Shown piece after piece: positions 4,899-62,417 of a stretch of DNA of 64,000 nt (its first letter is position 1; each line of letters opens with the position of its first letter). Source of the DNA: Candidatus Woesearchaeota archaeon (GTDB lineage: Archaea; Nanobdellota; Nanobdellia; Woesearchaeales; ARS49); the NCBI GenBank assembly GCA_016203445.1, contig JACQMS010000011.1, forward strand, positions 2,517 through 66,516, written 5' to 3'. A program made the position numbers and the translations under genes. Under the pieces are notes generated by a model, which was given only the letters and a program-made list of their open reading frames with translations, made no database searches and was not told where the DNA came from.

Positions 4899-5279
4899 TT
4901 ATTTGTCAAAATCATTAGTTAATGTATTATTATCCTCTGGAATTCCAGTTTTGAACCACAACTTTCTTTCTAGATCAGAATGCTTTTCCCAATGATTTAT
5001 AACGTACTGCGCCAAATCTAAATTACCCCTATCATAAAGAGTTGTTACAGCATCCACAGGCGAGAGCGTTCCATTCGCAAATGCCAAATAAATATTAAAA
5101 TCAAGAGTTCCAGGTTTTGGCCCCCGAGGTTTCTGAACCAGCGCGTCAAAAACCCAGTAAAAAACACGAGACAAAATGGGCCGTCTACATTGAACAAATT
5201 CGAGCGTTGCTCTAGAAAAACATTCCTGTCCATAAGAAAATGATCTTGGCAGAGAATTTTCATCATTAGCTATAATCAC
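4899..5279 (-). CDS. Hypothetical protein (126 aa)
   Basis: ORF with a 4-nt overlap (ATGA-type) with the upstream gene 5276..5578. Confidence 0.45.
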   Translation of the reverse strand: MIIANDENSLPRSFSYGQECFSRATLEFVQCRRPILSRVFYWVFDALVQKPRGPKPGTLDFNIYLAFANGTLSPVDAVTTLYDRGNLDLAQYVINHWEKHSDLERKLWFKTGIPEDNNTLTNDFDK

Positions 5280-5578
5280 TTTACCACCCCGTAATGTTCT
5301 ATAATATCATTAGAAATAGGCAAAGAAAGACCGCTAGGCTTGTGAAAAATGCAAGGAACAAGATTGCCACGCTCATTCATCCTAACAACAAGCTCCAAAC
5401 CCTCAGGATCCTGAAAATATCCCTGCTCAACACTCAAATTCTTGTACAAAATATTCCTTTCCAACCTAGAAAACGCGTTATGATAAGTAGCACCCAAGTA
5501 GAAAACGCTCACGAACATTCCACAACGCATAGTAGTTTTTAAAACGTCAAAAACGAGTTTTGATCCAAGATCTTCCAT
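5276..5578 (-). CDS. Hypothetical protein (100 aa)
   Basis: ORF preceded by an A/T-rich TATA-like TTTTAAAAT box about 16-29 nt upstream. Confidence 0.45.
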   Translation of the reverse strand: MEDLGSKLVFDVLKTTMRCGMFVSVFYLGATYHNAFSRLERNILYKNLSVEQGYFQDPEGLELVVRMNERGNLVPCIFHKPSGLSLPISNDIIEHYGVVK

Positions 5579-5620
5579 GACAAAATACTAAACTCTAATT
5601 TTAAAATGTTTTTCTGAGAA

Positions 5621-5727
5621 AAAATCGGAAAAACAAACAACAAAACCGCAAAGTTTACGAAAAAACCGGAAAAAACACGCAAAAAAACGACAACAACCGG
5701 AAAACTTCCGAAAAAACCGGAAAAGAA
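5621..5727. repeat. Degenerate array of about 6 AAAACCGGAAAA-like units
   Basis: Units seen directly: aatcggaaaa, aaccgcaaag, aaccggaaaaaa, caaccggaaaac, aaaccggaaaag, within a 107-nt intergenic stretch. Confidence 0.5.
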
Positions 5728-5932
5728 TAAGACGAGAAAGAGTTTTTGTTTATAAAAGAAAAAGCCCGTTAAATCATATCCATTATTTTTTGAAGTCTGT
5801 TAAATTCTTTTGTTGAGATCTCATTTGGAAATAACCCCTCAACATTGTTCAATATTTTATTTCGCAGAGTATAAACGCTAAATTAGTATAAACTATTTTG
5901 GTCGCTTATTATAACTCATCATTAATACTCAA

Positions 5933-6784
5933 TCAAAATCTTAACTCTCTCAACCTTTTAATCCTATCCTCGGTTCTAGGGTGAGTGCTCAAAAGAGACA
6001 AAAAAGTGCTAGCCCTAAAAGGGTTAACGATAAACAGAGAACTAGTAGCTTCAGAACCGCCACGCATAGGCTCATGATGAACACCAACCTCCAACTTGTG
6101 CAAAGCATTAGCCAAACCATTCTTATCCTTCAAAAGACGAGCGGCCTTCTCATCAGCAAGAAACTCCCTAGAACGACTAATAGCCAACTGCAAAAGAGTG
6201 GCCATTATAGGAACAAGAATTGCTAGAGCTATAAGACCAAACAAGTTCTGACCATTTCTATCATCACGACCATAACCGCCAAACATCGCACCCCAACGAA
6301 CAGCAAAAGAAACATAACCAATAACGCTGGCAATAGTTGCGGCGATAGTAGTAATAAGCATGTCGCGATGCTGAATATGAGCCATCTCGTGAGCGGCAAC
6401 ACCCCTCAACTCATCATAATTCAACAAGCCAAGAATACCAGTAGTAAAAGCGATAACCGCTTTACTAGGAGTCGGACCAGTAGCAAAAGCATTAGGAGTA
6501 GGAGAGCTCATTATGTACACATTAGGCACAGGAACTTTAGCCTTATGAGCAATATCAGAAACCATAGAATACAACTGGGAATAAGTATTTTTGTCAGCAG
6601 GCTTCGCGCCATACATGAAAAGAACAAGCTTATGAGAGAAAAAATAACTACCAACATTCATAAAAATCGCAAGAATAAACGCAAAAGTTAACCCTTGAAA
6701 ACCACCAACAAGCCTACCAACAAACAACAAAAGACCAGTAAGAGCTCCAAGAAGAAAAACAGTCTTAACACGATTATCAATCAT
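5933..6784 (-). CDS. htpX: HtpX-like M48 zinc metalloprotease (membrane)
   Basis: HEMAHIQHRD zinc motif, N-terminal TM helices, 283 aa. Confidence 0.85.
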   Translation of the reverse strand: MIDNRVKTVFLLGALTGLLLFVGRLVGGFQGLTFAFILAIFMNVGSYFFSHKLVLFMYGAKPADKNTYSQLYSMVSDIAHKAKVPVPNVYIMSSPTPNAFATGPTPSKAVIAFTTGILGLLNYDELRGVAAHEMAHIQHRDMLITTIAATIASVIGYVSFAVRWGAMFGGYGRDDRNGQNLFGLIALAILVPIMATLLQLAISRSREFLADEKAARLLKDKNGLANALHKLEVGVHHEPMRGGSEATSSLFIVNPFRASTFLSLLSTHPRTEDRIKRLRELRF

Positions 6785-9932: not shown

Positions 9933-10424
9933 ATGGATGAACGAAGAACAGAAGTTTCAAGAGAGCTGGATTCATACTTATCGCAGAGAAAAAGTGGCGG
10001 TGGATGGAAAGGATGGTTCTCAACAAGCAATGAGCAACCTCAAGGAAGATTAAACATAAAAGGTTCACAAATGGTACAACAAGTTCAAGAAGCAGTCGTT
10101 CAACAAACAGAACAAGAACCTCAAGCAGTACAATTATCAGAAACTCAAGAATCCCAAGAATACAAGGAAGCATCACAGAAAAAAACTTTTCTGCATAAAA
10201 TATTCGGAGGGTTAAGAAAAAATCCTTCAAAAGAAGAAGCGGAAAAGGTTGAAGATATGGTGGTAAAACAAGAAACCGACGCCGCCCAAGACATACAAGA
10301 ATTAGCAAGAATAACACTAAGAGTGCTAAAACACCTGCCAGACGAAGAATTGGCAGAGTATAAATCATCAGAAGATTTTGACAGGATGAAAGACTTATTA
10401 AGAAAACACAAAATAATCAAGTAA
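9933..10424 (+). CDS. Hypothetical E/Q-rich low-complexity protein (163 aa)
   Basis: ORF in the correct intergenic position. Composition is biased, so the coding status is uncertain. Confidence 0.35.
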   Translation: MDERRTEVSRELDSYLSQRKSGGGWKGWFSTSNEQPQGRLNIKGSQMVQQVQEAVVQQTEQEPQAVQLSETQESQEYKEASQKKTFLHKIFGGLRKNPSKEEAEKVEDMVVKQETDAAQDIQELARITLRVLKHLPDEELAEYKSSEDFDRMKDLLRKHKIIK

Positions 10425-48103: not shown

Positions 48104-49984
48104 TTGAGCAATACAACAATTGCAAGCAAGTCAAAAGGAGGAATAGGACTGTTTTTCCTAATAACAATAATAGTTCACGCAGCAGACATTCTAATAAGAT
48201 TAACGGGCGAAGTAAAAATTTTTGATCCACTATTTATTATGCTACACTTCGTACTAATTCCAGGAATGGGGTGGCTATTAATAAAAAGTGTCAGAAACAA
48301 GGAAGGAATAGAAACTCTAGGAATATTCGCGCTGTGGGCGTACATAATACCATTAGTGTTAGTAATACCATTCATAGAAGAATTGGTAAAAAACACTCTA
48401 GGAATATTCGCGTACACTGCAATACTATTAGCAATGCCCGCATGGTTCTTCTTCATAATGACAAGAGATGAAAATGAAAAACCGGAATGGCTAAACAAAT
48501 TTTCTGCAGGGTACATGTTCATATGGTTTATCGTGGTAGCAACCACAATAATATGGCCAGCAATAAGCAACACCGGAGAAGGAATAGCATTCGGCTCCGA
48601 ATTTCACGCGGGCGACGCGATGGTTGAATCAGCAGGAGAATTCGTGACTATAATAGGACAAGTAATAAGCGCGGCGACAGCAGAAGTAGAAAACGTAAAA
48701 CAAGAAATAAAAGGCAACACGACACAAAAAGATGCATCAAGAAAAATAAACCCATCAGAATTTGAAGCAATAATAGATTGGAGCGATGAAGGAATAGTAA
48801 CACTCGGAGGAGCGCCATTCAAAACAACTGACGAGCTATCAGTAATAGGAACACTAAGAACGAAAACGTTCTCTGAAGACAAAGAAATAAATGTACAAAT
48901 ATCCTGCTTCACGCCAGGAGCAACAAACGACAAAATAACACTAACACCAGAAACATACGAAGCAATAGGAAGAAACATACAAAAAGAAAAAGTGACATGC
49001 ACAGTTTCAAAAAACACGCTAAACCCCGGAACGCACAAAGTAACACTAAAAGCAGACTACTCAATGGAAGCAATAGCGAAACTAGAATTCACGACGGGAA
49101 AAGAAGAATTATTCAGCCTAAACAAGTACGGAGAGTATACACCAAAAACGGCGGAGCTATCAAAAGCAATAATTCCATCAACAGTAACAAGCTCTAAAAC
49201 ACCGCTAAAAGTTGATATAGCGCTACCAGAAAAGTATGTAGTACTAAACGATAAAAGAGAAAACATAAAATTCACGCCAGACATAATAATATCAAGAAGC
49301 ACAGTTAAAGGTGAGGGAAAGGTTAAAGGAATAATAATAGTCGCACCCAAAAGCTTCACACTGGAAACAATAAGGCCATACAGTGAAAAAATAGTGAAAT
49401 CAAACTGCGAATATTTAAGAGAAGAATATCCATACACAGAAATGCCATGCGACAATACGTTTGAGACGGTATACTCAATAAATACCGGAGATCTCAGGAT
49501 AACAACCAATGCAAGAATATCAACAACGTTCACACTGCACAAGGATTCATGGGAAAGATTTCTTGGAGGAAGCTCATTCACACAAAAGGCATTTTATGCA
49601 CTAGCAAAATATGATTACACGATAAACGAATCAAAAGATGTAAGAGTTGAAGGAGAGACAATAACTGACGGAGGACGCACTGTAAACTCAAACATACCAG
49701 TGATAATATCGGGGCCGACAATACAATCATCAACAAACAATGCAAGAATAGAAATAGAAACAAACGTTGACACAAGAATAACAATAAAATATTGGAAAGG
49801 TAACGAAGAATCAAAAAGCACCACAAAAATAAGCAATTATGAAAGAAATCATAGAATAGATATTTCAAACCTAGAGCCGGGAACAAAATATTCAGTATTC
49901 ATTGACATAGTTGACAGAAAAAATAAAAGAAATGTACAATCATTAGAATTCACAACGAACACCGCGCCAGGAGCACAACCATGA
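48104..49984 (+). CDS. Polytopic membrane protein (~5 TM) with a large extracellular Thr-rich domain ending in an FN3/Ig-like module
   Basis: Five hydrophobic segments in the first ~170 aa. C-terminal …LEPGTKYSVFIDIVD… resembles FN3. Confidence 0.55.
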   Translation: MSNTTIASKSKGGIGLFFLITIIVHAADILIRLTGEVKIFDPLFIMLHFVLIPGMGWLLIKSVRNKEGIETLGIFALWAYIIPLVLVIPFIEELVKNTLGIFAYTAILLAMPAWFFFIMTRDENEKPEWLNKFSAGYMFIWFIVVATTIIWPAISNTGEGIAFGSEFHAGDAMVESAGEFVTIIGQVISAATAEVENVKQEIKGNTTQKDASRKINPSEFEAIIDWSDEGIVTLGGAPFKTTDELSVIGTLRTKTFSEDKEINVQISCFTPGATNDKITLTPETYEAIGRNIQKEKVTCTVSKNTLNPGTHKVTLKADYSMEAIAKLEFTTGKEELFSLNKYGEYTPKTAELSKAIIPSTVTSSKTPLKVDIALPEKYVVLNDKRENIKFTPDIIISRSTVKGEGKVKGIIIVAPKSFTLETIRPYSEKIVKSNCEYLREEYPYTEMPCDNTFETVYSINTGDLRITTNARISTTFTLHKDSWERFLGGSSFTQKAFYALAKYDYTINESKDVRVEGETITDGGRTVNSNIPVIISGPTIQSSTNNARIEIETNVDTRITIKYWKGNEESKSTTKISNYERNHRIDISNLEPGTKYSVFIDIVDRKNKRNVQSLEFTTNTAPGAQP

Positions 49985-50898
49985 GAAAAAATATCACCCG
50001 AATTTTAACGATAATACTATTAATATTTTTGATATTGCTAACTGCATCATGCGGTCTACAAACGAGAACAACACAAGTAGAAAAAGGAACTGAAGGTTTA
50101 TACACAAAAATATTTGCAGGAAACAACAACATATTGTACGAAGATACAACAGGAACAATAAATGTAGACGTAGAAAATAGAGGTGCCGGAGAAGTCAATC
50201 ATGGAATACTAGTACTAAACGTTCCAGAACAATTCATAGAAATACCCAGAGACCAACAAAAAGAATTATTATTAGCAGGAAGAAGCATAGACCAGCCGGT
50301 AGGAGAACAAATAACATACACGTTCAACGTTAAAATAAGAGAGATAACAAGCGAGAAAAAAGATATACCAACAATAATATCAGCAAGCACGTGCTATCAG
50401 TACAAAACAACAGCGAGCCCGACAGTATGCATACAAATGCCTGACGACTCAAAACCTGAATGCAAAGAAAGAACAGTACTCCTTGGAGGCCAAGGAGGAC
50501 CATTAGCCATAACAAGCGTTGAAACAACAACAATTCCATCAGAAGGAGACATGGTTATGCCAATAATAACGATAAAAATACAAAACAAAGGCAGGGGAAT
50601 AGTATTAGAGCCGAGCACAGTGCTGAACGCGTGCTTAAGCACGAGCGAGAAAGCTCAAGAAAACAAAGCATTAATAGAAGCATTCATAGACCACAAAGGA
50701 AGAATGCTAACGTGCAACAAAGAAAAAACACAAGGAGAAACAAGCATAAAAATAGATGAAGGAACAACAACAATAACATGCAAGTACGATCAAGGAATAC
50801 CTAAAAGCGAAGGAACTCACACATCCCAAATAATTATAAACCTAGCATACGGGTACTATGATATCACGACGCAAAAAATCGTGATAAAAAAGACGTGA
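49981..50898 (+). CDS. Putative lipoprotein (lipobox LTASC), paralog of 50903..51820
   Basis: MRKNITRILTIILLIFLILLTAS|CG. Shares CY(Q/E)Y…C…LG(G/A)QG(G/A)P… and C-terminal …YGY… blocks with the next gene. Confidence 0.55.
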   Translation: MRKNITRILTIILLIFLILLTASCGLQTRTTQVEKGTEGLYTKIFAGNNNILYEDTTGTINVDVENRGAGEVNHGILVLNVPEQFIEIPRDQQKELLLAGRSIDQPVGEQITYTFNVKIREITSEKKDIPTIISASTCYQYKTTASPTVCIQMPDDSKPECKERTVLLGGQGGPLAITSVETTTIPSEGDMVMPIITIKIQNKGRGIVLEPSTVLNACLSTSEKAQENKALIEAFIDHKGRMLTCNKEKTQGETSIKIDEGTTTITCKYDQGIPKSEGTHTSQIIINLAYGYYDITTQKIVIKKT

Positions 50899-50902
50899 TA
50901 AA

Positions 50903-51820
50903 ATGAAAAAAAAATATGTACTAACAATAATCGCGGTTTTAACAGTGCTGGCACTATCAGGGTGCACGACAGGAAATAGAGGCGAAGGAACTGGGGGGGC
51001 GGGCATTGGAGGCAACGGGTTAAGCATAAAATGGACACCAAACGTGCCACCAAACACAATATATGAAGACCAACCATTCGAGATAGCAGTAGAAGTAGAA
51101 AATTTAGGAGCGAACGAAATAGGCGCGAGCACTGACAGAATATACTTTTCAGGATTCTCAAGAGAAAGAATAAGCGGAGATTTTTATAACGGAATACAAA
51201 TACCAAAATTGGACGCGCAAACAAGATACAACAGCGGAGGCAAAGATTTAGTAAGCATAACAGGAACAATAGCAGACCTAGAAACACAAAACGAGTACCA
51301 AATACCACTAACGGCAACAGCATGCTACGAGTACTCAACAGAAGCCGGAGGAACAATATGCATAGACCCAGACCCGTTCACAACAAGCACAAGAAAGAAA
51401 AGCTGCACGCCAGGAAGCGTAACACTAGGAGCCCAAGGAGCGCCAGTAAAAATAACAGGAGTACAAACAGAACCAGCAAGCGGTAAAACAAGACTAACAA
51501 TAACAATATCAAACACTGGAGGAGGAGACGTGTACAAAAGAGAAGCACTAGCATACTGCAATCCTTACAACACACAAAGAGCATCATACAACAGCCTAAA
51601 CATTGTTCAAGTAGAAGAAGTAAGCATAGGAGGAACAACAATACAATGCACAGGACTAGGTAATGACAAAACACTAAGACTAATAGGAGGCAGAGGGCAA
51701 ATGAGGTGCACATACGAAACAACACAAACAACAGAATTCACAGACCAACTCAAAATAAAAATAAGATACGGATACAGAACAAGCATACAAAAAAATGTAG
51801 CAATACTACCAACAGATTGA
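50903..51820 (+). CDS. Putative lipoprotein (lipobox LSGC), paralog of 49981..50898
   Basis: MKKKYVLTIIAVLTVLALSG|CTTG. Same 305-aa length and conserved Cys/aromatic blocks as its neighbour. Confidence 0.6.
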   Translation: MKKKYVLTIIAVLTVLALSGCTTGNRGEGTGGAGIGGNGLSIKWTPNVPPNTIYEDQPFEIAVEVENLGANEIGASTDRIYFSGFSRERISGDFYNGIQIPKLDAQTRYNSGGKDLVSITGTIADLETQNEYQIPLTATACYEYSTEAGGTICIDPDPFTTSTRKKSCTPGSVTLGAQGAPVKITGVQTEPASGKTRLTITISNTGGGDVYKREALAYCNPYNTQRASYNSLNIVQVEEVSIGGTTIQCTGLGNDKTLRLIGGRGQMRCTYETTQTTEFTDQLKIKIRYGYRTSIQKNVAILPTD

Positions 51821-51826
51821 GAATGT

Positions 51827-53077
51827 TCAAGAACTATTATCGCCAGATTCTTCAACACCGCTAAGAAGTTTCTTTGCTTTTTTATCAATAATATCTGCAG
51901 CATCTTTAGGAATGCCTTTAGAAAATATTCCTGCACCAGTTTTTGACTCTGATTGTTTGGCTTTCTGCAAAGCTTCCTGTTTCAAACGCTCCGCAAGAGT
52001 TAAAGGTTTTTCTTTAGGAATGTCGCCAACAGTCTCTCCAGTCAATTCATCTCTTTTTGGAGGTTCAGCAAGCACGGAATCTTTTTTTTCATCAAGATTT
52101 TTTTCTGGCTCAAAATTTGAGGAAGGTTCAGTAATTAGTTGAGCATCTTTTGATTTCTCAACAGAAATTTCTTTAGACTGCCCCGCACCAAAATCTTGAA
52201 CAGCATTTTCTTCAACAACACTTTTTTCTGCTACTCCCGCAGTTGGCTGTTGAACATAAGAAGATTGAACAATCTGCTCCTGCACGCTCGCCGAAGAGGG
52301 GACATTTTGAGAAGAATTTTCCTCCACCAAAGATTTAGGATTCTGACCCAAATTCACGACCTCCAACATTCCAAGCATCTCAGAAGAAATATCAGGATGA
52401 GGCAAAGAAGAAGTTTTCTTCTTCAAAACATCAATCTCTCTAGTTAACGCTTCAATATCCTTAGACAATTGCTCTTTTCTATTATCTTCAGCAAATTTCA
52501 ATTCAACGCTCTTTCTATCAAGATCTGCTTGACGCTGCATGATAAGAGATTCCTTTATTCTAACAGCACCCTCCAATTCTTTAACCTTTTGAAAACGCTC
52601 AGAAATCTTATCTCTAGGAATATCAAAATAATCAAAAAATTTCTCTGCAATATTAATAATTTTAGTCCTGCCATGCTTCTTCCTAGAAATATATCCTGCA
52701 TCTTCAAGAATAGATAGATGATCATAAGCCTTATTAGTCCTAATCCTAACAACTTCAGACTGCAACAATGGAGCTTTGGAAGCAATAATTGCGAGAGTCT
52801 CAAGAACTGTCTTGGTAAGCTCAGTCTTAGTAACAATCCTCCTAATATAAGGAATACACTCCGGGACAACATGAAGCTTCCACAAATCATCCTCATTCTC
52901 AAGAATTATCGCGCCGCCCCTAACAGAATATTCTTCCTTAAGCCTCAAAAGCGCGCCCCTAACATCGTCAAAATTCCTAATCCTAGAAAGAGAAGAAATC
53001 TCATCCAAAGAAAGCCATTTACCAGAAGCAAAAAGAATTGCCTCAACTATCCTCAACAATTCCTCTTTTTTCTCCAC
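51827..53077 (-). CDS. scpB: ScpB (segregation and condensation protein B) with a ~240-aa coiled-coil/acidic C-terminal extension
   Basis: LLRIVEAILFASGKWLSLDEIS… and TLAIIASKAPLLQSEV tandem WH motifs. Long E/K-rich tail. Confidence 0.7.
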   Translation of the reverse strand: MEKKEELLRIVEAILFASGKWLSLDEISSLSRIRNFDDVRGALLRLKEEYSVRGGAIILENEDDLWKLHVVPECIPYIRRIVTKTELTKTVLETLAIIASKAPLLQSEVVRIRTNKAYDHLSILEDAGYISRKKHGRTKIINIAEKFFDYFDIPRDKISERFQKVKELEGAVRIKESLIMQRQADLDRKSVELKFAEDNRKEQLSKDIEALTREIDVLKKKTSSLPHPDISSEMLGMLEVVNLGQNPKSLVEENSSQNVPSSASVQEQIVQSSYVQQPTAGVAEKSVVEENAVQDFGAGQSKEISVEKSKDAQLITEPSSNFEPEKNLDEKKDSVLAEPPKRDELTGETVGDIPKEKPLTLAERLKQEALQKAKQSESKTGAGIFSKGIPKDAADIIDKKAKKLLSGVEESGDNSS

Positions 53078-53729
53078 TTTTATAAACCCCTTTTTCCTTA
53101 AAAATCAATTTTTGTTCAAGCATCCTATCAATATAAGGCTCCAAATCATCATCATTAACACCAACAATATTAGAAATCTCTCCCAAAGTCATAGGCTTAC
53201 TCTTCAAAGCGTGAACCACAAAATTCCTAAAAATCATCATGCTGTTCTTATCAAGAATTGCTGCCTTAGCAGTCAAAAGCTTCAAATCCATATCAACAGT
53301 ATGAAGCTTGGCCTGAAGATCATTAATAAAATTAGAAAGAACATCCCTATCCAAAGAAACGGTTACAGGATCAAGAATTTCAACACTAGAAGGCATAGAC
53401 TCAATACAAAAATTAAGAAGGCGCGCAACATCATCAAAAGAAATCTCCAAATCAGCAAAAGTAGAAAAAAGACTCTCCTTAGGAATAACATCAGCAATTT
53501 TAACAACAACCCGCAAATTCTTTTCACTCTTCAACCTATCAACATAAGCCCTAATAGTTTTGTCCAAATACTCGGCAGGAGAGCCAAGCATTTCCACAAT
53601 ACAACGAGCAGTAATCATGAACGAAGGAAAAACACAAGAGTTTATAACTCTTGTGCCAAGAAAACAATTCAATTTATTGGTTGGATAAATTATTTTCATG
53701 TCTTCTCCAACCAAAAAGCTTTTAAACAA
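53043..53729 (-). CDS. scpA: Putative ScpA (kleisin), assigned mainly by its position upstream of and overlapping scpB
   Basis: 228-aa ORF overlapping scpB by ~35 nt. No diagnostic motif recognised by eye. Confidence 0.45.
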   Translation of the reverse strand: MFKSFLVGEDMKIIYPTNKLNCFLGTRVINSCVFPSFMITARCIVEMLGSPAEYLDKTIRAYVDRLKSEKNLRVVVKIADVIPKESLFSTFADLEISFDDVARLLNFCIESMPSSVEILDPVTVSLDRDVLSNFINDLQAKLHTVDMDLKLLTAKAAILDKNSMMIFRNFVVHALKSKPMTLGEISNIVGVNDDDLEPYIDRMLEQKLIFKEKGVYKSGEKRGIVEDS

Positions 53730-53751
53730 TTAACCCTTAATCATATCATTT

Positions 53752-54351
53752 TTGATAAGATTGGTGTTTAACATGAACGAAGCAATAAAAGGACATTTAC
53801 GACAGTATCCAGTTTTTACTGTGAAAGATTTAGCAGGCACACTCGATAAACCCGCAGAATATGCATCTTTACAGACATACCGATGGAAGAAAAAGAATAT
53901 CATTCACGAAGTCGAAAAAGGAAAATATTCTTTCGAAGAAGACCCATTTGTTATCGCTTCGTGGATCTTGTGGCCGAGCTATATTTCTGGATGGGCGGCA
54001 CTGCAATACTATCATCTTACGGAACAATTGCCTTTCACAATTCAAGTTATGACAACGAGAAAAAGAAACAAAAAAAGTATCAAGTATGGAAACGCAAAGA
54101 TAGAATTTACGACAGTAAAACCGTCATTTTTGAAAGGATTTCAACAAATATTATATCATCAAAAAGAAATCTTCATTGCAGAAAAAGAAAAAGCAATCGT
54201 AGATGCGGTAGCAACGAAAAGAATGTCATTGAACGAATGTACAAGCATCATTCAACACAATAAAAATAATTTAAATCTTAAAAGATTATTTTCTTATGCT
54301 ACCATGATCAAAGGACTCTCAAAAAAAATAAAGGCGGGCATACATGATTAA
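53752..54351 (+). CDS. AbiEi-like antitoxin/transcriptional regulator
   Basis: ~200 aa, sits immediately upstream of and overlaps (8 nt) an AbiEii/DUF1814 NTase gene. N-terminal wHTH-like region. Confidence 0.5.
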   Translation: MIRLVFNMNEAIKGHLRQYPVFTVKDLAGTLDKPAEYASLQTYRWKKKNIIHEVEKGKYSFEEDPFVIASWILWPSYISGWAALQYYHLTEQLPFTIQVMTTRKRNKKSIKYGNAKIEFTTVKPSFLKGFQQILYHQKEIFIAEKEKAIVDAVATKRMSLNECTSIIQHNKNNLNLKRLFSYATMIKGLSKKIKAGIHD

Positions 54352-55102
54352 AAAAGAAGAATTATTACGAATAGCAAACCTCAAAGGACTCCCGTCCCGT
54401 TTTGCGGAACTGGATTATCTTCAAGATATTGCACTTTTAGGAATATGCCGAGAATTTGGAAATGCTCTTATATTCAAAGGAGGAACTTGCTTGTACAAGA
54501 TACACCACCTCAACAGGTTTAGTGAAGACTTGGACTTTACTGCTCAAAAAAAGTTTAAACCAAAAGACTTTTTTGCTCGTTTACCACACATATTTTTACT
54601 TTTTCACATTACATGTACTGTTACAATAGAAAGATTTCAGAACAATATCAATGTATGCTTGAAATTGAATGGCCCTCTTTATGATGGAAGCAAAGAAAGC
54701 AGAAGCAGACTTCTACTAAATATTAGTTCACGAGAAAAAGTTTTTATGCCACTCTTACAAATTTCTTACGCTTCATTATACCAAGAAGTTCGCCCATTTG
54801 ATATATACTCCATGGATGAGAGAGAGATATTAGCCGAAAAAGTACGTGCAGTATACCAAAGAGAAAAAGCCCGAGATGTATATGATATCTGGTATTTAAT
54901 CACCGTGAAAAAGATTTCGCTTGATTTGAAACTGGCACAGAGAAAGTTATCTTCTGTTCACGCACTATTTGGAAAAGATACATTCCTCAAAAATATAAAA
55001 GAGAAAAAGAACAGTTGGAATACTGATTTATCAGCACTAATATCAGGACAACTTATCCCTTTTACAGAAGCAGAAAAAGAAATTCAAAAGTATATAGAAT
55101 AA
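54344..55102 (+). CDS. AbiEii/AbiGii-family nucleotidyltransferase toxin (DUF1814)
   Basis: ALIFKGGTCLYKI…RFSEDLDF matches the family's F-K-G-G-T-[AC]-L … R-x-S-x-D-[LI]-D-[FL] NTase signature. Confidence 0.75.
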   Translation: MIKKEELLRIANLKGLPSRFAELDYLQDIALLGICREFGNALIFKGGTCLYKIHHLNRFSEDLDFTAQKKFKPKDFFARLPHIFLLFHITCTVTIERFQNNINVCLKLNGPLYDGSKESRSRLLLNISSREKVFMPLLQISYASLYQEVRPFDIYSMDEREILAEKVRAVYQREKARDVYDIWYLITVKKISLDLKLAQRKLSSVHALFGKDTFLKNIKEKKNSWNTDLSALISGQLIPFTEAEKEIQKYIE

Positions 55103-55142
55103 AAGATTTGCTTTTTCACAATGATATCCTAAAGATCAAACT

Positions 55143-55487
55143 TTATTTCCTATTAAGTTTTTTTTGCGACGACGCTACCTCGCAAGCACGGCCACTGTCG
55201 TCGAAGTTGCTGCATGCACTGACATAGCTCAAGTTGTCGTCGAAGCCGACGACACCCCAAACACGGAACAACCGAACAACAACATTATCACTCGTGAGAC
55301 CTTGAGATTTCAAATAACGAGGAGTTAATAACCAAATACCCCCAAAAGAATAACCTTCTTTTCTTCCACTCAAAAATAATGCATTACCAAAAGCAACTTC
55401 CCTGCCAACTATGGGAGTGAGAACTCTTGCATAATCACAACCATCATTATCAGGACTTAAAAAGTGAATGTCCCTATGCCGGCGCAT
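55143..55487 (-). CDS. Hypothetical small protein (114 aa). Its 3' third lies in an unusually GC-rich hairpin-rich segment.
   Basis: ATG directly abuts the hjc stop (TAAATG). C-terminal coding region is GC-rich, with GTCGTCG/CGACGAC inverted repeats. Confidence 0.35.
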   Translation of the reverse strand: MRRHRDIHFLSPDNDGCDYARVLTPIVGREVAFGNALFLSGRKEGYSFGGIWLLTPRYLKSQGLTSDNVVVRLFRVWGVVGFDDNLSYVSACSNFDDSGRACEVASSQKKLNRK

Positions 55488-61926: not shown

Positions 61927-62083
61927 AAACGCTTGCTACGCAACCGTTTGCATCATAAACTCTTACATCGTCGGGTACATTGCTACGCAAGTACCCATAA
62001 GAACTAAAACTAGAACTATAACAACAACAGTTAATTTTTCACACACTTTTCTAAATACAAAAGCATATAATAAGATTTACCAA

Positions 62084-62167
62084 TGCAGGGAGCAGGATTC
62101 GAACCTGCGAAGGCACTAAGCCAGCAGATCTTGAGTCTGCCCCGTTTGGCCACTCCGGCATCCCTGC
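62084..62167 (-). tRNA. tRNA-Leu (anticodon CAA) with a long variable arm; CCA not encoded
   Basis: Folded by eye: acceptor GCAGGGA/TCCCTGC, anticodon stem GCAGA/TCTGC, loop CUCAAGA, variable arm TGGCTTAGTGCCT, T-arm GCAGG-TTCGAAT-CCTGC, discriminator A. Confidence 0.85.
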
Positions 62168-62417
62168 AAAAAGAATAGACGCTGAAGAGAGGCTAAAAGT
62201 ACAGCTAAAAGCGCACATTTATAAACACTTCTTTCGATAATGGTTCTGTTAACAGAGAAATTATTGTTTACGAACCCAAAAGTTTTGGGTTTAGATATGG
62301 AGTGAAATAAGGTGACTATTAATAGAGGAACAACGCGTTTTCTCGTAAAGATTCACACTGCAAAGTATCACAAAGAAAAACAATATTATAAGAAAAGAAA
62401 GTTAACGGAGTAAAAAA

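Follow-up and report, generated by a model that had tools for sequence, protein, structure and literature searches.

An intact AbiE-family toxin-antitoxin pair between the hjc and scpB genes of a Candidatus Woesearchaeota archaeon

A 64,000-nucleotide stretch of the genome of a Candidatus Woesearchaeota archaeon (GenBank assembly GCA_016203445.1, contig JACQMS010000011.1, forward-strand positions 2,517 to 66,516; here called the window, and numbered from its first letter) contains two overlapping genes that make up an ordinary, intact AbiE module, in which an AbiEi antitoxin of the AbiEi_4/COG5340 family precedes an AbiEii toxin with a DUF1814 nucleotidyltransferase (NTase) domain. The family is well known and the locus is not a new kind of system. 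COG5340-DUF1814 pairs were described in 2014 as widespread in bacteria and archaea (PMC3985639), and a survey from 2026 that covered 7,747 archaeal genomes reported the DPANN archaea (named from Diapherotrites, Parvarchaeota, Aenigmarchaeota, Nanoarchaeota and Nanohaloarchaeota) to be depleted in CRISPR-Cas and restriction-modification (RM) systems and enriched in AbiE (PMC12988326). It is highly probable that the pair works as an AbiE-family toxin-antitoxin (TA) module in the way described for its relatives. The two genes are:

53773 to 54351, plus strand: abiEi, a 192-residue antitoxin whose C-terminal domain follows a winged helix-turn-helix (wHTH) at about residues 3-53
54344 to 55102, plus strand: abiEii, a 252-residue DUF1814 toxin, a nucleotidyltransferase of the Pol-beta type

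A first-pass annotation had described a 252-residue protein with a DUF1814/AbiEii signature preceded by an overlapping gene of about 200 codons, and both open reading frames (ORFs) are present as described. They lie on the same strand, overlap by 8 nt (ATGATTAA), and are full length relative to their families (192 and 252 residues; 100% coverage). In its longest reading the first ORF opens with a TTG (53752 to 54351, plus strand, 199 residues). Translation of abiEi, however, almost certainly begins at the ATG of position 53773, because the exact 192-residue protein is on record (P0121), because 192 residues is the length of most homologues, and because the TTG falls within a conserved non-coding palindrome, the putative operator treated below. 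The signature in the second ORF reads as had been claimed: the 252-residue frame contains ...LIFKGGTCLYKI...RFSEDLDF... and the stretch ...LIFKGGTCLYKIHHLNRFSEDLDF..., and the exact protein is named 'nucleotidyl transferase AbiEii/AbiGii toxin family protein [Candidatus Woesearchaeota archaeon]' by NCBI.

Profile, motifs I-IV and fold confirm that the toxin belongs to the AbiEii/DUF1814 NTases. The Pfam profile PF08843, proposed beforehand as the check on this protein, matches it strongly (E=9.5e-29, 101.4 bits against a cutoff of 22.5, residues 36-232), as does the PADLOC AbiEii model PDLC02323 (E=2.2e-59, 199 bits, residues 1-251). Conservation was scored in an alignment of 48 homologues of 51-74% identity, in which K45, G46, G47, T48, R58, F59, S60, E61 and D62 are invariant, as are E165, K166, R168, R173, K175, A176, R177, D178 and D181; D64 is conserved in at least 90%. 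Motif I is F44-K45-G46-G47 and motif II is R58-F-S60-E-D62-L-D64, with 14 residues between G47 and D62 where the Pol-beta consensus is hG[G/S]x15DhD. Motif III is E165-K166...R173, its K166-to-R173 spacing of 7 being equal to that of K173/R180 in Streptococcus agalactiae AbiEii, and motif IV is R177-D178-x-x-D181. When the toxin profile was compared with PDB 9hlo_B, R-x-S60-x-D62-x-D64 aligned to R-x-T-x-D-x-D, and EK166...R173...D178-x-x-D181 to EK...R...KD-F-Y-D192; this entry, entitled 'Abortive infection protein AbiGII', is apparently S. agalactiae AbiEii, as its numbering and motifs match those of Dy et al. In the S. agalactiae toxin G49, R63, D67, D69, K173, R180 and D192 are each needed for toxicity (Dy et al., PMC3985639), and their counterparts are all present here (G46, R58, D62, D64, K166, R173 and D181). 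The phospho-acceptor of S. agalactiae AbiEii is T65 (preprint 10.64898/2026.01.19.700257); the invariant S60 of the window toxin occupies this position, which is also that of S78 in MenT3. An AlphaFold2 (AF2) model of the toxin, with a predicted local distance difference test (pLDDT) score of 92.7, gave 12 significant Foldseek matches in the PDB, all of them DUF1814 proteins (JHP933, MenT4 and MenT3/TglT; E 1.6e-9 to 5.5e-7, template modelling (TM) score 0.56-0.67, probability 1.00).

The upstream gene, whose product is known as a 'hypothetical protein', appears from its modelled fold to encode a bona fide AbiEi. In the AF2 model (pLDDT 92.4, predicted TM score 0.87) a helix at residues 3-9, a strand bridge at 15, helices at 17-24 and 28-40 and a hairpin at 45-48/51-53 are followed by an alpha/beta C-terminal domain. 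The winged HTH of AbiEi and of Rv2827c has the order H1-S1-H2-t-H3-S2-W1-S3 (PMC3985639), and the predicted order over residues 3-53, H-S-H-H-S-S, matches it. The modelled fold is matched best in the PDB, along the full length, by 6Y8Q, a crystal structure of S. agalactiae AbiEi (E=3.4e-8, probability 1.00, TM 0.58, 22% identity, 199 aligned columns), with the next matches more than 10^5-fold weaker. An AbiEi-type wHTH in the N-terminal partner had been expected in the first-pass annotation, and at the level of a model the wHTH at 3-53, with 6Y8Q as top match, bears this out. By sequence, 29 PADLOC AbiEi models match the antitoxin, the best being PDLC02267 (E=9.2e-31), and within its close family (55 members, 40-72% identity) 36 proteins match Pfam AbiEi_4 (PF13338; best E 3.5e-8); homologues carry the Joint Genome Institute (JGI) label 'predicted transcriptional regulator of viral defense system'. 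In this DPANN subclade, annotation routinely recognises the toxin but usually passes over the antitoxin. Between the wHTH and the C-terminal domain lies the loop L82-T-E-Q-L-P-F88, in which T83, Q85 and P87 are invariant. In S. agalactiae AbiEi, the loop D85-E86-I87 is essential for toxin binding and for induced autophosphorylation, and loop 82-88 stands at the equivalent place by residue number only.

Homologous pairs were found in eight further DPANN contigs, with toxins 51-74% identical. At all eight, a gene for a protein of 191-197 residues comes first and overlaps an AbiEii gene of 251-263 residues, by 8 nt in most and by 4 or 14 nt in three. Among the 120 top matches of the toxin, those with names are all from DPANN (Woesearchaeota, Nanoarchaeota, Micrarchaeota and Diapherotrites). 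Together with the window these contigs give nine loci at which the DNA ahead of abiEi could be compared, and in the window it contains the following elements:

53712 to 53727, plus strand: putative archaeal promoter, a purine-rich stretch resembling a B-recognition element (BRE) followed by the TATA box TTTTAAAC (53720-53727)
53739 to 53762, plus strand: putative AbiEi operator, a 24-bp palindrome, AATCATATCA-TTTT-TGATAAGATT, that ends 11 nt before the ATG
53763 to 53766, plus strand: GGTG resembling a Shine-Dalgarno (SD) sequence, 6 nt before the abiEi ATG

The same layout (BRE-like stretch, TATA box, about 11-13 variable nt, palindrome, GGTG, 4-6 nt, ATG) is common to nine of nine loci, and is conserved amid flanking DNA that cannot be aligned and between proteins that are only 50-75% identical. 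The TATA columns TT(T/A)TAAA are invariant or T/A-only, the palindrome has the consensus AATC(A/T)TATCA-N4-(T/C)GATA(A/T)GATT (that is, AATCWTATCA-N4-TGATAWGATT), and the SD position reads GGTG, GGGG or GAGG; the promoter, operator and SD of the window are identical to the family consensus. Within the 64-kb window the palindrome is single-copy even when 3 mismatches are allowed (0 of 100 shuffles, 0.00 expected by chance). At three loci the ATG chosen by the gene caller lies inside the right half-site, which is why AbiEi predictions there run to 196-197 residues. The TATA/BRE element would, from its sequence, be the abiE promoter, and the palindrome is likely the AbiEi operator. Archaeal transcription typically starts about 25 nt past the TATA centre; the start is thus predicted near 53749-53752, in the 4-nt spacer of the palindrome, and a bound wHTH dimer would for this reason block initiation. 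S. agalactiae AbiEi is known to bind inverted repeats in its own promoter in autoregulation (PMC3985639), and promoter inverted repeats and autorepression have been described for Rv2827c (PMC7319586); repression through the palindrome would be their archaeal counterpart.

Scanning IMG/VR with the operator palindrome returned 8 matches, none beside an AbiE gene, which were set aside as chance matches, and a sigma-70 promoter and terminator scan, a method not applicable to an archaeon, gave counts at chance level. At one of the other loci (L067, about 5103-5205) an insertion of about 90 bp resembling a miniature inverted-repeat transposable element (MITE), which contains inverted repeats and is bounded on either side by GTGTAT, lies between the conserved operator and the abiEi start codon, shifting the operator from -34 to -127.

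The site occupied by the pair could be compared with its counterpart in one close relative, L007, that was found by a genome-collection scan with a neighbouring 218-residue protein. Twelve window proteins were searched against L007 by tblastn, and the edges of homology were placed by blastn. Two features of the window are concerned:

53648 to 55483, no strand assigned: 1,836-bp block, inserted or replaced; at this place L007 carries 55 unrelated bp (9962-10016)
55143 to 55487, minus strand: orf114, a truncated C-terminal remnant in the block, convergent to abiE and outside the AbiE system

L007 is collinear with the window through FEN1, p331, EndA, RNase Z, Hjc, an MJ0538-like protein, ScpB, p305b and p305a, with flanking proteins 85-92% identical (ScpB 69%). 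AbiEi, AbiEii and orf114 were not found in it by tblastn; blastn homology breaks at 55484 and 53647, and hjc lies there next to the MJ0538-like/scpB genes, in the same direction. Comparative synteny had been suggested as a way to see whether the pair is variably present, and it is: absent from this site in L007, it occurs in unrelated contexts at the other loci. It more likely came in with a 1.8-kb block, into the spacer that separates hjc from the MJ0538-like/scpB genes, than was lost from L007, because a truncated foreign gene stands at the junction and because the contexts of the pair elsewhere are unrelated. A metagenome scan with RNase Z for further sites yielded 53 loci, of which only L008, a short contig that ends before the site, keeps the RNaseZ-Hjc pair; the rest, at about 42% identity, lack synteny. 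Exact-protein look-ups in Logan samples gave no empty-site allele, and the contig breaks found there are not at the block edges.

The eight other neighbourhoods all differ. One pair lies in a TA/defence island that also holds Pol-beta NTases, YhcG and UPF0175, and another (L064) has a KaiC-like ATPase and a degraded second AbiE pair beside it. A third is flanked by an RsmB methyltransferase on one side and a HAD hydrolase on the other, a fourth by SpoIIM and an acetyltransferase, and a fifth by Alba and an S-adenosylhomocysteine (AdoHcy) hydrolase. The remaining three lie within a LysW/LysX...ArgC cluster with a reverse transcriptase (L071), adjoining a HepT/MNT pair, and among four VapBC/PIN pairs. 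On the Nanoarchaeota contig L064 the degraded pair (5141-6554), 1.5 kb upstream of the intact one, consists of a 239-residue gene in the antitoxin position and an AbiEii split into pieces of 144 and 62 residues. On L071 (6415-10119) the AbiE pair, a 290-residue ORF and an RVT_1 reverse transcriptase lie inside the lysine-biosynthesis cluster, with a PemK toxin pair just beyond.

These comparisons bear on what the neighbouring genes signify. The first-pass annotation had placed the pair directly after an scpAB operon and had read it, next to chromosome-segregation genes, as a second small defence insertion. The pair is instead head-to-head (divergent) with the minus-strand MJ0538-like/ScpB genes, and its adjacency to scpB is coincidental, as the site is empty in L007 and the other loci lie elsewhere. 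That an NTase with a wHTH partner should serve in a housekeeping role with ScpB, Hjc and RNase Z, and not as a TA module, is hardly credible: physical adjacency between hjc and the scpB operon is all that speaks for it, and L007 does without the pair, with hjc beside the scpB operon, scpB or hjc occurs near the pair at 0 of 8 other loci, and the pair is on the opposite strand with its own putative promoter.

The remnant orf114 has only four homologues (P0242-P0245, 265-329 residues) among the 1.84 billion representatives that were searched exhaustively with phmmer, and its residues 7-109 align to their C-terminal ~100 residues only (e.g. 209-310 of 315), from which it follows that it is what is left of the C-terminal end of a longer, uncharacterised gene. 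It is cut at the hjc-side junction, starting exactly at the hjc stop (TAAATG); its guanine-plus-cytosine (GC) fraction, 0.43, is above that of its surroundings and of abiE (0.34), and neither it nor its family has a Pfam or PHROG match; it is absent from the other AbiE loci. Convincing target-site duplications or terminal inverted repeats were not found at the block ends (hjc and MJ0538-like sides), no integrase or tRNA gene flanks the block, and Rfam and tRNA scans of the window found only an unrelated tRNA-Leu (62083-62168) and no RNA gene in orf114. With a truncated remnant next door, a visibly degraded second pair in L064 and no mobility genes or terminal repeats left at the block, the pair itself might be taken for a decaying, non-functional relic of horizontal transfer. 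This is very improbable, since both ORFs are full length, the catalytic, phospho-acceptor and invariant antitoxin residues are all intact, the promoter, operator and SD agree with the family consensus, and both AF2 models are confident.

Several observations concern the ends of the block and its neighbours. Logan contigs of three runs (SRR12113383/4/5) break at 55289 and 55414, inside orf114, and the 125-bp stretch between is bridged only by the NCBI contig of this metagenome-assembled genome (MAG); a repeat or strain variation may be the cause, and the join across the break is supported by the collinearity of orf114 with its homologues. At the left junction a perfect hairpin with a 12-bp stem (53631-53657, minus strand; GGCACAAGAGTT-ATA-AACTCTTGTGTT) straddles the block edge and shares sequence with the likely TATA box of the MJ0538-like/scpB operon; only its right arm is present in L007, and the hairpin is probably incidental. 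ScpB itself (51827-53077) is confirmed by PF04079 (E=2.1e-28). The neighbour that had been called ScpA (191/218 residues) matches neither Pfam SMC_ScpA (PF02616) nor NCBIfam ScpA at E<=0.1 and has no informative match in the PDB; that name is not confirmed, the sole label being a precomputed annotation, PF27325 'MJ0538'. This gene (53043-53729, minus strand) overlaps scpB by 35 nt, and its translation probably begins at neither the TTG at 53729 nor the ATG at 53699 but at the M at 53618, which opens a sequence (MITAR...) that L007 conserves. Beyond scpB, tandem paralogues of 305 residues (49981-50898 and 50903-51820, plus strand), 27% identical and both kept in L007, have N-terminal sequences resembling signals or lipoboxes, and a precomputed annotation gives one of them a faint CARDB match. 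L007 (CAYJTR010000001.1) is labelled 'uncultured Methanosarcinales archaeon' although it is collinear with, and 85-92% identical to, the Woesearchaeota window, and this MAG has probably been given the wrong taxonomic name.

From these features a working mechanism can be proposed along the lines of the bacterial systems. The genes abiEi and abiEii would be co-transcribed from the TATA/BRE promoter and translationally coupled through the 8-nt overlap, and the AbiEi wHTH would bind the 24-bp palindrome over the predicted transcription start and so repress its own operon. Free AbiEii would add nucleotides to tRNA 3' ends by way of G46/G47, D62, D64, K166, R173 and D181, and this modification would block aminoacylation and translation and lead to growth arrest. 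AbiEi would most likely keep the toxin off by binding it through LTEQLPF (82-88) and inducing autophosphorylation of S60. If operon expression or the antitoxin were disturbed, as might happen in a virus infection, toxin in its active form would accumulate and the infected cell be arrested (abortive infection), and/or the cassette would be stabilised as an addiction module.

The first-pass annotation used the labels 'GTP-specific' and 'type IV', after Dy et al. 2014; both are superseded by a 2026 preprint (10.64898/2026.01.19.700257), which reports S. agalactiae AbiEii to be a tRNA NTase specific for pyrimidines, with a preference for UTP and activity on tRNA-sized RNAs, and which reclasses AbiE as type VII, the toxin being neutralised by antitoxin-induced autophosphorylation. 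Such induced autophosphorylation of the motif II Ser/Thr abolishes nucleotide binding (PMC11375011; preprint 10.64898/2026.01.19.700257). MenT3 and MenT1 likewise add nucleotides to tRNA 3' ends and block translation (PMC7450476, PMC10435456), and MenT3, as S. agalactiae AbiEii, adds pyrimidines.

Among the closest known systems are the AbiE modules of S. agalactiae and Lactococcus lactis (COG5340-COG2253; 6Y8Q, 9HLO). They share with the window pair an antitoxin-first operon of two overlapping genes, an antitoxin of about 195 residues built of a wHTH and a C-terminal domain, DUF1814 motifs I-IV with a hydroxyl residue at the phospho-acceptor, and a palindromic promoter element. Identity to them is only about 20%, however, and the host here is an archaeon, with a putative TATA/BRE promoter rather than -35/-10 elements; compared with S. 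agalactiae AbiE there is one 24-bp palindrome and not two 23-bp inverted repeats, Ser and not Thr as phospho-acceptor, and a toxin of 252 rather than 287 residues. The MenAT systems of Mycobacterium tuberculosis (MenT3/TglT Rv1045 and MenT4 Rv2826c; MenA3 and Rv2827c) have the same DUF1814 fold (matches 6Y56, 6Y5U, 6J7x and 8XHR, E 5e-9 to 5e-7), the R-x-S-x-D-x-D motif with Ser as in MenT3 S78, and a partner in the COG5340 antitoxin family. Identity to them is 14-19%, MenT proteins have about 290 residues, which tRNAs are targeted cannot be predicted from the sequence, and the mode of MenA1 differs in its asymmetric binding. Among solved structures the best match in both sequence and fold is JHP933 of Helicobacter pylori (4O8S, 4OK0), an orphan NTase of the plasticity zone with a similar size (232 residues). 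To our knowledge no AbiEi-type partner has been reported for JHP933. HEPN/MNT (HepT-MntA) modules, abundant in archaea and found in the same islands as relatives of the pair, also join an NTase to a partner, but with roles reversed, as a minimal NTase serves as the antitoxin by modifying the toxin, a HEPN RNase, and they are without a DUF1814 domain or a wHTH antitoxin. It is improbable that the pair stands for a DPANN-specific AbiE subclade fitted to archaeal transcription by one compact palindromic operator over the start of a TATA/BRE promoter, with a toxin aimed at the tRNAs of archaea or possibly of the cell on which the episymbiont lives; AbiE would in that case be a principal antiviral or host-interaction weapon of CRISPR-poor DPANN archaea, with a regulatory or neutralisation logic unlike the bacterial one.

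Several points weigh against reading the locus as an AbiE module that works and defends like its bacterial counterparts. The window antitoxin matches no Pfam AbiEi model at E<=0.1, and its match to NCBIfam TAA_AbiEi (E=1.6e-8, 34.5 bits) is below the cutoff of 150. PDB sequence searches with the antitoxin, as a single sequence or as a 55-sequence profile, gave no meaningful match, so that its link to AbiEi in the PDB came from fold comparison only. The AbiEi profile assignment that had been proposed is accordingly a divided one: it stands with PADLOC and, through 36 of 55 family members, with AbiEi_4, but fails for the window protein itself in Pfam. Toxicity, target RNA, nucleotide preference, phosphorylation and defence are extrapolated from bacterial proteins of 15-22% identity. 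The binding mode of AbiEi may differ as well, the palindrome being compact, with 10-bp half-sites, against the two 23-bp repeats of S. agalactiae, and the choice between insertion here and deletion in L007 draws on one comparator genome and a truncated remnant gene. In IMG/VR the toxin family has only relatives of at most 41% identity, and at most 31% over alignments longer than about 70 residues; from these viral contigs the AbiE clade is not evidently virus-borne, and a PHROG search with both AbiE proteins gave no match. Lastly, S. agalactiae AbiE gave Escherichia coli no protection against 32 coliphages (preprint 10.64898/2026.01.19.700257, section 12), so that defence is not a general property of AbiE.

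The pair perhaps serves in virus defence, a proposition that falls at or slightly short of an even balance. A purely selfish addiction cassette, a functional TA pair kept because its loss kills the cell and of no antiviral benefit, is a doubtful explanation, though deserving of weight. It would suit a compact, self-regulated cassette that sits among housekeeping genes in several genomes and has no evident virus-sensing component, and would agree both with the stabilisation of plasmids by AbiE (PMC3985639) and with the coliphage result. On the other side, L. lactis AbiE, RlegTA and SanaTA, all DUF1814 systems, do protect against phages (cited in preprint 10.64898/2026.01.19.700257), AbiE is enriched in the DPANN genomes that are poor in CRISPR and RM (PMC12988326), and some relatives of the pair lie in TA/defence islands; addiction and defence are, moreover, not mutually exclusive.

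By itself the locus matters little, AbiE pairs being among the commonest TA/defence cassettes. What it adds is a clean comparison of a filled with an empty site, pointing to the recent gain of a cassette in a reduced genome, and the assignment by fold of an upstream 'hypothetical protein' as AbiEi. It also adds a conserved archaeal promoter with a candidate operator, a directly testable site at which an AbiEi repressor would meet the archaeal transcription machinery. The locus could further become a compact archaeal test case for the proposed type VII mechanism, in which the toxin is neutralised by autophosphorylation.

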